DNA of 64,000 nt from NCBI GenBank assembly GCA_038232935.1, contig JBBSMX010000002.1, positions 9,231-73,230 of the forward strand. The letters run 5' to 3'. Source of the DNA: Rhodothermales bacterium. Its GTDB lineage: Bacteria > Bacteroidota > Rhodothermia > Rhodothermales > JANQRZ01. Below are positions 58,505 to 64,000 of the stretch, piece after piece; positions within the stretch are counted from its first letter, which is position 1; every line of letters begins with the position of its first letter. The position numbers and the translations under genes were made by a program. A model generated the notes under the pieces. The model was given only the letters and a program-made list of their open reading frames with translations, was not told the origin of the DNA and made no database searches.

Positions 58505-58597
58505 CGCGCCTCACGCTCGGGCCTGGGAGGCCAGGCGGGTGGGCGTGGCTTCGAGAGGAAACCCCTCCGCACCGCGCCCGCCGTCAGCCACGCTCGA

Positions 58598-61500
58598 TCA
58601 CACGGTCGATGCACGCGCGCACGTAGGCCGCCGTCTCCACGGCCGTGGGATCGTGGAGCAACCCCCCCCCTGCTTCACCCGAAGCTCCTCGAACCCACCT
58701 TGGGCCAGCTTGCTCCAGTCCGTGTGCAGGTTGTCCTTCATCTCATGTCGGATGAGGACGACCTCCCCAGCGTAGGGCTTCAGCTCGTACTCGTACATCA
58801 TGCGCTTGTACTCTTCGTCGACGTATTCCGAACGCAGGCGCTCGGGGATCGGCCGGTCCAAGGCGGCGAGAGCGCGGCTGTACTGCAACGGCAGGTTCGC
58901 TTTCCGCACCGCTTTGCTCACCCTGAAGCCGACGCTCCTCTTCGCCCATCGCCATGCGTGCGACAGCCCTTCCTCCCGAAGCCGAGCGAGCTGTTCGTCC
59001 CGCCGCTTGCGGCGTTTCTTCTCGGTCCGGTCGATGTCGCCGTTGATGATGCAGACGAGGCCTACTTCCGCACCCTGGGCGCGTAGTTGGCGCGCTATTT
59101 CGAGGGTGACCCGCCCCCCGATACACGCAGTCGCCATGAGATACGGCCCCTCCGGCTGAAACGCCCGCATCTCTTCGATGTACGCCGCCGCCATCTCCTC
59201 GACGCTTCGCAGCGTGAGCGGTCGCCCATCGTGGCCCGGCCCCTGGATGCCGTAGACCGGCTGGTCCTCCCCCAGGTGCTTCGCCAGCCGCTCGTAGCGG
59301 AGGATCTGGTTGGTGCCGTTGTGCGGGCAGAAGAGGACCGGGCGCGTGCCGTGGGGTTGAATAGGGACGAGGTACGACCACGCCTGCTCCGTCGCCGATC
59401 CGCTTCCGTCGCCGCTGTCGTCGAGTTGAACGGCGAGCATCGCGATCGTAGGAGACGTGAAGAGCACCGCGAGGGGCAGCTTCTTCCCGAACGTGCTCTC
59501 AATCCGCGCGAAGAGCTTGATGGCGAGGATCGAGTGGCCGCCGAGGTCGAAGAAGTTGCCGTGGATGCCGACCTGGTCGAGGTTGAGGAGGTCGCTCCAT
59601 ATCTCTGTGAGCGCCTGTTCGGCCTCGGTGCAAGGCGCTACGAACGCGGCCTCCGGCTCCTTCCGCGCCTCTTCGGGAGCGGGCAGCGCCTTGCGGTCCA
59701 CTTTGCCGTTCGGGGTGAGCGGCAACGTCTCCAGCGCCACGAGGGCCGTGGGCACCATGTAACCGGGGAGCCGCTCCACCAGAAGGTGCCGGACGTCGTC
59801 GATGAGTTGCTCCGTGGTGTTCCACGCCGGCACAGTCGGCTGCATCCGGCCCGACTCCTCACGCGGCGCGCCAGCCGTAGGCCGCGTGGCGTACAGCTTG
59901 AACAGCGGGGTCTCGGTGAGCTGCTCGTCCTGCTCCACCGTCAGCTCGAACCCGTGACGGCCGAGCATCTGCCGGATCTTCTCCAGCGCGCCGTCGGTGT
60001 CCTGCACCTCCATCGCCACCTGGCGGATCTTCGGCCAGTCGGCCTCGTCGATCCCTTCGAGCACGTCCAGCTCGCTCTTCTCGACATCGACCTTCAGCAG
60101 GTCTATCCGCTCGATCCCTTCGGCGCGCATCACCTCCGAGACCGTCCGCAGACGGCACGCGATCTGCTCGCTGGTGAGCCGCTGGTCCAGCAGCTCGTCG
60201 AGCTGTGCGCTGGAGATGGCTCCGTCCCCTCCGCTGGACTCACCGCTGAGGAAGGACTTGATGGCGGCGCGCTCGTCGACCCCGTCGGCGTAGCGGCCGG
60301 AGACGAGGGAGACGTGGGGGTAATAGGTGAAGACCGCGCTGCCGGTCTCGCGGCTGAGCCCACACTCGAACGGTTTCACGCTCGCGCCGTAGAGCGCCGC
60401 GTTGATGCGCAGCGCCTCGAAGGTGGCAGGGATCGGCTCGAAGGCGTAGACCCTCGCGTTGCGAACGGACCGGCTCACGAGGAGCGAGAACAGGCCGATG
60501 TTGGCTCCCACGTCGAACACGCATGCCCCGTCGTCGAGAGTAATGCCGTGCTGGAGGTAGGACTGCTCCTCGAAGATCTCTTTGAAGATGTACTCCGTCT
60601 CGCTCTGGTTCTGGTGGGCGATGTGCATGCCGTTGGGCAACTCGAAGCGTGTCCGACCCGCGAGCAGGTTCTCACGCTCCAGCCGAAGCTGCTGCCGCAC
60701 TGGCGCGGCCTCCTCCCGGTCCGGGACCAGATAGGCCGCCAGCCGCTGCTGGCCCGGCGCGTCTTCGCGCGCCATCACGACGGCCTCTTCCACCCCGGCG
60801 TGCTGCCGCAGCACGGCCTCGATCTCGCCCAGCTCGATGCGATAGCCGCGCAGCTTCACCTGATCGTCGGCGCGCCCGAGAAACTCGATGGTGCCGTCGG
60901 GCAGGGTGCGCCCGAGGTCGCCGGTCCGGTAGAGCCGGGCGTGCTCGCCCTCGTCGAATGGGTCGGCGACGAAGCGCTCGGCCGTCAGCTCGGGGCGACC
61001 GAGGTAGCCACGCGCGATGCCGTCTCCCCCGATGTAGAGTTCCCCGACCGTGCCCATCGGCACCGGCTGTTGCTGCTCGTTGAGGAGGTACACCCGCGCA
61101 TTCGGGATCGGCCGCCCGATGGGCACCGTCGCGACCCGCTCGCGGTCCTCCGGCCACGGCCGGGCGTCGTAGACCGTCGCCCAGACCGTGGCTTCGGTCG
61201 GGCCGTACTCGTTGAAGAGCGGCGTCTCGGGGAGGCGTTCGGCGTGGCGTTCCACGAGGTCCGGTGGGCACGCCTCGCCCGCGACGATGGCGGTGCGCAG
61301 CGAGGCCAGACTACGGGGCTCGATCTCGTCGAGGAGGAGCCGGTAGAGCGACGGGACGGCGAGGAGGTGCGAGACCTCGTACTGCGTGATGAGGGCGGCG
61401 AGCGGCTTCGGCTCGGCCGACACGTCGGGGGCGGGCACGACGAGGGTGCCGCCCTGCGCCAGCGTCCAGAACAGCCCCGCCACCGAGCTGTCGAACGAGA

Positions 61501-63457: not shown

Positions 63458-63506
63458 CGGTCGGAAACAGGAGGTCAGAAACAGTGCGGGTGAAGCGGAC
63501 CGCGTG

Positions 63507-64000
63507 TTAGTTGGAGTGCGGCTCCGTCATCGCGGCGACGACGGCGCGGTCGCCTTTGTACGGCTCGCGGGCGTGGGCGACGGCCATGTTGTTGAGCATC
63601 ATCACGTCCCCCTCTTCCCACAGAAACGCGACGGTTTCCTCGCGGTAGGCGTCGAAGAGGTGGGCGATGTCGTCCGGGTCGATGGGCGTGCCGTCGCCGT
63701 AATACGTGTTGTACGGCAGGCCCTCGACGCCGAACGCGTCGAGCAGACGCTCGCGGACGGTGGGCTCGAGCGCGGAGACGTGGAAGAAGGCGGCATGGTT
63801 GAACCAGCACGTCTCCCCCGTCACCGGGTGCGTGCGGACGGACGGGCGGATCTGCCGCGTGCGGAGCCGGTCGCCGTCCTTCCACTCGAACGCGATGTCG
63901 TTGGCGCGGCAGTACGCCTCGACCTCTTCCTTGCTATCGGTCTGATAGACCTCCTGCCACGGCAGCCCGAACCCGTCGTTGTAGTTGCGGACGTACATCA
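63507..64000 (-). CDS. TauD/TfdA-family Fe(II)/2-oxoglutarate dioxygenase (SyrP-like), 5' end beyond the window
   Basis: The C-terminal 163 aa are visible (RTHPVTGETCWFNHAAFFH..., MMLNNMAVAHAREPY). Frame is still open at base 64000. Stop is 49 nt upstream of the NRPS start. Confidence 0.8.
   Translation of the reverse strand, partial: MYVRNYNDGFGLPWQEVYQTDSKEEVEAYCRANDIAFEWKDGDRLRTRQIRPSVRTHPVTGETCWFNHAAFFHVSALEPTVRERLLDAFGVEGLPYNTYYGDGTPIDPDDIAHLFDAYREETVAFLWEEGDVMMLNNMAVAHAREPYKGDRAVVAAMTEPHSN

Follow-up and report, generated by a model that had tools for sequence, protein, structure and literature searches.

The DNA considered here is a 64,000-nucleotide stretch of contig JBBSMX010000002.1 from a Rhodothermales bacterium (hereafter the window), at whose right-hand end the minus strand carries a TauD/TfdA-family dioxygenase gene, cut by the window edge, followed by a gene for a nonribosomal peptide synthetase (NRPS). 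We propose, with a probability of about 0.6, that these genes make up the downstream portion of a compact operon with two NRPS modules, [A1-T1-C]-[TauD]-[I-A2(M)-T2-TE], joined in relatives by a phosphopantetheinyl transferase (PPTase) gene (A, adenylation; T, carrier; C, condensation; I, interface; M, methyltransferase; TE, thioesterase). Module 1, encoded outside the window, would load an Ile/Val-like amino acid (code DAFFIGVTF), and A2 would load L-His onto T2. The His-less interface domain would then recruit the stand-alone TauD enzyme to beta-hydroxylate His-S-T2, and a KtzH-type M domain lying within A2 would O-methylate the new beta-hydroxyl, giving beta-methoxy-His-S-T2. The intact C domain that ends the module-1 protein would form the peptide bond, and the dipeptidyl chain would pass to the TE cysteine for release, which is the least certain step of the pathway.

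An initial annotation of the window, made from the sequence alone, described a TauD gene, a 49-nt gap and a 1619-aa NRPS with the layout C*-A[MT]-T-TE, and this layout is borne out by the open reading frames (ORFs) and a Pfam search. The NRPS ORF (58598..63457, minus strand) encodes 1619 aa, with Pfam matches to Condensation (residues 18-447), AMP-binding (467-819), AMP-binding_C (878-924), Methyltransf_21/FkbM (982-1172), PP-binding (1281-1342) and Thioesterase (1375-1497). Pfam matches and the translation likewise agree with that annotation in placing all A-domain core motifs, a GGHS carrier and a terminal thioesterase in this protein. The features of the locus are as follows.

63507..64000, minus strand: TauD/TfdA gene, 3' half, cut by the window edge; stop codon 63507-63509; PF02668
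63458..63506, minus strand: intergenic spacer of 49 nt between the TauD stop and the NRPS start, read from the sequence
62117..63406, minus strand: interface (I) domain, residues 18-447; PF00668 6.4e-54, profile positions 5-456
60686..62059, minus strand: adenylation motifs a1-a8, residues 467-924; PF00501 8e-96; code DSALIAEVWK
59942..60514, minus strand: FkbM methyltransferase (type II M domain), residues 982-1172, inserted between a8 and a9; PF05050 1.1e-17; S-adenosylmethionine (SAM) motif FDVGANIG
59678..59785, minus strand: adenylation motifs a9-a10 (LPGYMVP ... PNGKVDRKAL), residues ~1225-1260, from the translation and orthologue alignment
59432..59617, minus strand: carrier (T, or peptidyl carrier protein) domain with GGHS attachment site, residues 1281-1342; PF00550 1.5e-15
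58584..59380 (end in the corrected frame), minus strand: type-I thioesterase, nucleophile Cys1445 (codon 59123-59125); PF00975 7.5e-18
58662..58670, minus strand: run of nine G (C on the plus strand) with a frame shift of the last ~25 codons, from the orthologue alignment
57551..58504, plus strand: ABC-transporter ATPase (DrrA-like), convergent with the NRPS gene; PF00005

The cassette and its upstream module

A protein search gave 2143 matches, and among the best 120 of these the full architecture of the window NRPS occurs in four other proteins: P0002, which is 66% identical to the window NRPS, and P0026, P0047 and P0048, which are 49-50% identical. The genes around these orthologues run in the order A-T-C protein (1017-1092 aa), TauD (324-346 aa), I-A(M)-T-TE protein and PPTase, and each is present wherever the orthologue contig reaches far enough. 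Indeed, [A-T-C]-[TauD]-[I-A(M)-T-TE] is found in L001, L003 and L004, which are all three of the loci with enough upstream sequence, and a PPTase gene lies directly downstream of the NRPS gene in L001, L002 and L003. With the L001 A-T-C protein as query we found P0124, a 1068-aa A-T-C protein that is 66% identical to it; the P0124 record sits on a 90,395-bp NCBI contig, and the window NRPS, PGK and GAPDH are also on a 90,395-bp contig. In both L001 and P0124 the upstream protein ends in an intact C domain with the motif HHIAVDGWS.

What the initial annotation took for a self-contained module is the terminal module of a two-module line, and a larger line continuing outside the window is what that annotation itself had named as evidence against its reading. 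Its description of a single module fits the 1619-aa polypeptide but not the assembly line, whose A-T-C module is encoded beyond base 64000. A free-amino-acid-supplying A-T-TE module of the NikP1 type is ruled out by the conserved upstream A-T-C protein with its intact C domain.

L001 has the module-1 A code DAFFIGVTY and P0124 has DAFFIGVTF (extracted by eye); each is one conservative change away from DAFFLGVTFK, the Ile/Val code in cyanopeptolin, and module 1 of these two proteins probably loads an Ile/Val-like amino acid. The subclade at 50% identity, represented by L003 and L004, has the unusual module-1 code DLPQVGFVW, and its module-1 a10 motif (L003, 258-3536; L004, 3574-6627) reads LTDRLK(V/L)DR, without the usual NGK. 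The cassette is rare, with five instances in the protein collection. A scan of GTDB species representatives with conserved peptides found no orthologue above 39% identity in the I domain, and a scan of JGI metagenome contigs with the TE profile found no family member. An exact 69-mer taken at the end of the window has no match in the JGI contigs either, and exact-protein look-ups with the NRPS and with P0124 gave no record of the contig past 64000.

Interface domain, hydroxylase and embedded methyltransferase

The domain that opens the window NRPS has a full-length C fold (PF00668 profile positions 5-456) directly N-terminal to the A domain (from residue 467), and at the HHxxxDG site it has PVLCADA; His is missing there from all five orthologues. 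A scan of GTDB species genomes for conserved peptides of the five C-like domains gave 64 loci, about 45 of them without His at the motif (typically LPALCAD). TauD homologues are encoded in 31 loci, and in 28 of these the gene stops 0-161 nt short of the His-less domain, in keeping with the function that the initial annotation had predicted, a stand-alone carrier-directed TauD beta-hydroxylase paired with a His-less interface domain; a normal C domain ends at most 265 nt upstream of TauD in 22 of the 31. The downstream A code in the scanned loci is mostly DLTKxGHVG (Asp), and most modules retrieved with the conserved I-domain peptides have this Asp code and an adjoining TauD gene. The arrangement of stand-alone hydroxylase and interface domain was, according to later papers that cite it, defined by Reitz et al. 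2019 PNAS (cited in PMC12971057, PMC12230676), and antiSMASH now includes IBH_Asp, IBH_His and interface-domain profiles (PMC12971057, PMC12230676). From its sequence and its neighbouring genes, the His-less C domain would be the interface domain already known to partner the stand-alone beta-hydroxylases of siderophore type.

The window cassette shares with the catalogued IBH_Asp and IBH_His modules (PMC12971057, PMC12230676) a TauD gene immediately upstream of a protein that starts with a His-less C fold and continues into the A domain for the residue to be hydroxylated, and an upstream protein that ends in a normal C domain; with IBH_His it also shares the His code DSALIAEVWK, the one reported for beta-OH-His. 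It differs from them in being a two-module line rather than a long siderophore synthetase, in having no siderophore transport genes, in carrying an O-methyltransferase inside the A domain and in its Rhodothermales-like host.

The TauD ORF in the window (63507..63998, minus strand) encodes the C-terminal 163 aa of the enzyme (PF02668, 5.5e-22), with ~161 codons beyond the edge, and this fragment shares 83% identity with the L001 orthologue over residues 162-324 of the latter. The fragment contains the distal His and Arg ('..VAHAREP..'); the H-x-E motif ('LHNE') is seen in the L001 orthologue, the N-terminal half of the window gene lying outside the window. A taurine/2,4-D-type free-substrate dioxygenase is ruled out, since TauD is embedded between NRPS genes in every locus. 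In a neighbour-joining tree of 31 TauD proteins, with long branches and no bootstrap, the family TauD joins L063 (Aquabacterium), the sole other His-partnered TauD retrieved; the grouping is suggestive only, the two being 44% identical, and identity to the other TauD proteins retrieved is at most 51%. Searching with the window fragment itself brought up nothing but short, incomplete proteins. Among solved structures, the one nearest to the family TauD is PDB 9yut-9yux, a 'TauD/TfdA-like domain-containing protein' (E 3e-32), followed by At3g21360 (Arabidopsis), and AsnO/VioC-type enzymes are not among the structure matches.

The architecture that the initial annotation had supposed for the window does occur elsewhere: five actinomycete loci (L046, L051, L054, L059 and L064, from Actinomadura, Actinoplanes, Sphaerisporangium and Kitasatospora) combine TauD with a truly single-module I-A(Asp)-T-TE protein and have no C domain directly upstream. 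Four of the five TEs have a Cys nucleophile, in GGWCLGG (L046, L051, L059) or GWCFGG (L054), and a normal post-beta6 Asp; L064 reads GWGLGA in place of the Cys elbow.

The A code of the second module reads DSALIAEVWK in three members (the window, L001 and L004) and DSALVAEVWK in the other two, L002 and L003. DSALIAEVWK is listed among His-activating signatures, with beta-OH modification accepted (PMC12283262), and the module-2 A domain is predicted to be His-specific. The M domain (982-1172) lies between a8 (859-883) and a9 (~1230), after the sequence LAAYLVP (~906-912), and its SAM motif FDVGANIG is invariant in the five orthologues. Family 2a interrupted A domains, which contain type II M domains and are represented by KtzH, are defined by an a8-a9 insertion, the motif DVGx(N/H)xG and the boundary L(V/A/I)(A/G)(Y/F)xxx, and KtzH O-methylates T-bound Ser (PMC8341866). 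The window domain agrees with this family in position, boundary (LAAYLVP) and SAM motif (DVGANIG); the host A domain differs from the Ser/Thr domains of the family in having a His code. FkbM-family enzymes of natural-product clusters are nearly all O-methyltransferases, the one N-methylating exception being EreM. An N-methylating class-I M domain is ruled out, as the domain belongs to PF05050 and carries the motif of type II.

Among the nearest NRPS relatives, a His-less C-like domain precedes M in 21 of the 23 complete M-bearing modules, a sample biased towards this pairing because matches were selected by similarity to a query that contains both domains. The A codes of these M-bearing relatives are for Glu (DAKDLGVVD), Gln (DAWQFGLID), Asp or His, and none is for Ser/Thr; the one hydroxyl that these residues could have in common would be a beta-OH placed by an interface-recruited hydroxylase. 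Because the M domain is of this type and the residues have no native hydroxyl, beta-hydroxylation followed by O-methylation would account for both, and the M domain would be a KtzH-type O-methyltransferase of the side-chain beta-hydroxyl, with beta-methoxy-His the likeliest building block. Methoxyhistidine has no mention in the searchable literature.

KtzH (kutzneride) and ColG (columbamide) resemble the window module in their a8-a9 insertion, DVGxNxG SAM motif and L(A)(A)(Y)xxP boundary (PMC8341866), as well as in their FkbM-family fold and in an expected target that is the beta-hydroxyl of a T-bound residue. The window module differs in that its A domain selects His rather than Ser/Thr, such that the hydroxyl would first be made by TauD, and in that it also has an I domain. 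The two-step logic itself has a counterpart: the 3-methoxy-Asp of A54145 arises through a SyrP-like hydroxylase and a discrete O-methyltransferase, so that there too an NRPS residue is beta-hydroxylated and then O-methylated. In A54145 the modified residue is Asp and a protein of its own methylates it, whereas in the window the methyltransferase lies within the A domain and the residue would be His.

Modules of the form I-A(FkbM M)-T with Glu/Gln/Asp codes are found in many NRPSs of Acidobacteriota and Gemmatimonadota (P0003-P0011, P0017, P0027, P0031, P0036, P0051, P0060, P0062, P0099, L011 at 3282-9000 and L040 at 9833-13777). Two of them, P0003 and P0004, have two tandem methyltransferase domains, and in L011 and L040 the hydroxylase gene does not adjoin the I-A(M)-T module.

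An I domain, a stand-alone TauD and a His code are exactly what makes up the siderophore beta-OH-His unit catalogued for IBH_His, and the window cassette could produce a small metallophore in which beta-OH-His is kept as a free bidentate metal ligand, as in siderophores that depend on such His hydroxylases, and the M domain methylates the imidazole N or the alpha-amine, or is inactive; L063 (Aquabacterium) has the same code in a large NRPS. We regard a metallophore as unlikely. None of the five loci has a TonB-dependent receptor, a siderophore-binding protein or another chelator pathway beside the cassette, a dipeptide with one bidentate group would be a poor Fe(III) ligand, and the M domain is kept in all five members with its SAM motif intact.

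Thioesterase and release

The nucleophile elbow of the TE reads TACIGG, and Cys1445 is invariant in the five members of the family, as expected from the Cys nucleophile named in the initial annotation. The alignments show the post-beta6 Asp site to be Glu or Asn within the family (Asn in the window TE), and the column of the catalytic His after beta8 reads G/G/R/H/R in the five members and adjoins a 2-residue deletion, such that the catalytic His is absent in four of the five. Invariant motifs specific to the family are FCxHNxxN, GHDGR and, in the loop after beta7, H-x-D-W. AlphaFold (AF2) confidently folds the TE of P0002 (80% identity in this domain), from an alignment of 17 sequences, into an alpha/beta-hydrolase with a mean predicted local distance difference test score of 82.7 and a core above 90. 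The invariant Asp of H-x-D-W follows strand 212-217 of this model, and position I is E/N.

The best Foldseek matches of the model are NRPS TEs (7crn, EntF, AB3403 and NocB), and an exhaustive profile search identified the nearest TE relatives as Cys-TEs (P0381, P0382 and P0392 among them) in which Asp and His are both normal; from its sequence, the family looks like a derived branch of this broader Cys-TE group. AB3403 (A. baumannii C-A-T-TE, PDB 4zxh) and the wider Cys-TE group (P0381, P0382, P0392 and others) share the GxCxG elbow and the FC(V/F)HN motif with the window family and are among its best sequence and fold matches. AB3403, which combines Cys with the usual Asp (PMC11298585), and the group as a whole keep the Asp after beta6 and a GxH histidine, whereas the window family has E/N and R/G at these places, in addition to GHDGR and HxDW. 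Many of the best TE-profile matches (P0360, P0361, P0371, P0374, P0377, P0383 and others) have two tandem TE domains, often both with Cys.

The initial annotation had also suggested that the product might be cyclised on release, by a self-contained single module whose Cys-TE frees a hydroxylated, methylated amino acid as a strained beta-lactone (ObiF-like) or beta-lactam. ObiF and SulM are alone among solved NRPS TEs in combining Cys with an Asp after beta7 ('position II') (PMC11298585), and the window TE recalls ObiF1 (obafluorin beta-lactone) and SulM (sulfazecin beta-lactam) in its Cys nucleophile, in its conserved Asp after beta7 (H-x-D-W) with no Asp after beta6, and in acting on a C-terminal residue with a beta-heteroatom (PMC11298585), here the beta-hydroxyl. 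By sequence, then, this TE resembles the lactone and lactam formers in two features, without their His: the catalytic His that ObiF and SulM keep is missing in four of the five members. There is no detectable sequence relationship beyond the common TE fold, as neither ObiF nor SulM is among the 39 phmmer matches at E<=1 or in the Foldseek top 50, the nearest relatives being the ordinary Cys-TEs described above, and the lid differs. Moreover, beta-lactone release is unlikely because methylation would cap the hydroxyl that a beta-lactone needs, and the beta-OH is probably methylated in the window system, where the M domain is of the beta-hydroxyl O-methylating type. A single module is, in addition, at odds with the A-T-C protein found upstream in all three loci that reach far enough and with its orthologue P0124 on a contig of the source's size. 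Strained-ring release thus has a very slim chance of being correct. The broader expectation of a small hydroxylated and methylated amino-acid-derived product survives in part: its hydroxylation agrees with the TauD/interface pairing, and its assembly by one self-contained module gives way to the two-module line.

Within the proposed two-module pathway, release by an intramolecular nucleophile (the free N-terminal amine, whose attack would yield a diketopiperazine) or with assistance from the substrate, for example its imidazole, is, as speculation, more likely than classical base-activated hydrolysis, because the canonical His and Asp of catalysis are gone from this TE family.

At the 3' end of the NRPS gene, the final 20 residues of the ORF are out of frame, unlike the four orthologues in the alignment. 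Past the run of nine G (58662-58670) the alternative frame reads GGGLLHDPTAVETAAYVRACIDRVIERG*, with its stop at 58584-58586; the C-terminus GGGLLHDPTAVETAAYVRACIDRVIERG is nearly identical to that of P0002, the closest orthologue, and one additional G restores the frame. The true C-terminus is, by this alignment, at 58584, which is the start coordinate that the initial annotation gave for the locus, and the frame shift is probably a 1-nt homopolymer error of the assembly, with a real frameshift as the alternative. Other homopolymers in the window may carry errors too.

The window copy could instead be a decaying pseudogene that makes nothing, as the shift at 58662-58670, the lack of a PPTase gene within 64 kb and a degenerate TE triad without canonical His and Asp would together suggest. 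We give this only a small chance. The shift falls within a 9-G homopolymer and touches the last helix only, as is typical of assembly error, and core motifs are all intact across the 1599 in-frame residues. Furthermore, the odd features of the TE do not vary among the five lineages, whose identity is 50-67%, a sign that purifying selection maintains a functional variant, and PPTases frequently act in trans.

Several points nonetheless weigh against the two-module pathway to a beta-methoxy-His product. The module-1 gene of the window genome is represented by a protein record on a contig of matching size rather than by DNA adjoining the window, and module-1 specificity differs between the subclades (DAFFIGVTY/F versus DLPQVGFVW), such that the N-terminal residue is not fixed. 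No PPTase gene is present in the 64-kb window, and the TE of the window copy is frameshifted. O-methylation of the beta-OH is assigned on the basis of the M-domain family, the type II M domains characterised so far use Ser/Thr, EreM N-methylates, and the association of I with M comes from the biased sample described above. Lacking the usual His and Asp, the TE may have little activity or catalyse an unexpected reaction. Lastly, no product or enzyme activity is on record for any cassette member.

The logic of an interface domain and a trans-acting hydroxylase is already known in kind; what is new is the combination of an interface domain, a His A domain, an embedded beta-hydroxyl O-methyltransferase and a Cys-only TE in a minimal two-module line. 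If the proposed pathway is correct, the product would be an Ile/Val-(beta-methoxy)His dipeptide or diketopiperazine, with a building block not found in the searchable literature, from a Rhodothermales-like host whose lineage has little characterised secondary metabolism. The cassette is a genome-mining lead, not a conceptual surprise. Being small (~9-10 kb, four genes), conserved and easily expressed, it could serve as a test bed for three questions about NRPS enzymes: the way in which interface domains bring in a trans-acting hydroxylase; the ability of embedded KtzH-type methyltransferases to modify a beta-hydroxyl that another enzyme has installed, which would open a way to beta-methoxy amino acids; and the mechanism of a thioesterase that has Cys but lacks the customary His and Asp. 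More tentatively, and with the odds against it, I-A(M)-T may be a general, so far undescribed type of module that hydroxylates and then O-methylates to make beta-methoxy amino acids, here beta-methoxy-His coupled to a Cys-only TE with release that relies on the substrate (through the imidazole or the free N-terminal amine, for example as a diketopiperazine).

Genomic setting

To the left of the NRPS gene lie housekeeping and other genes encoding GAPDH, PGK, RibD_C, MscS and the ABC ATPase. At 90% identity, GAPDH and a sigma-54 activator cluster with proteins from Rhodothermales metagenome-assembled genomes, consistent with the GC-rich Bacteroidota-like lineage guessed in the initial annotation. 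We compared window positions 57551-58504 and 58584-64000 with L001 (1-1260 and 11570-12385) and L070 (12236-14079). In L070, whose PGK is 91% identical, the gene order is the same, the ATPase gene runs 4 nt into the ABC-2 permease gene and no NRPS gene is present; in L001, the whole cassette lies antisense between the orthologues of those two ABC-2 genes. The window NRPS gene ends 80 nt from the ATPase stop. On this comparison, the cassette is an accessory insertion that splits an ABC-2 (DrrAB-like) exporter operon. Since the window is nearer to L070 than to L001 (its ATPase is 84% identical to the former and 75% to the latter), the island appears to have been gained or lost by exchange at this site. 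This split transporter, which flanks the cassette, is a possible exporter of the product.

A few kb from the cassette are genes for a large hybrid histidine kinase with Reg_prop/Y_Y_Y repeats (45409-49026, minus strand) and a sigma-54-dependent response regulator (51270-52655, minus strand), which are probably unrelated to it because both are conserved in L070, a locus without the cassette. The RibD_C gene (window positions 56018-56557) lies between PGK and MscS and is absent from that place in L070; in sample SRR24807093, which may contain the source organism, an identical RibD_C protein is encoded on a 1.1-kb Logan contig (L069).

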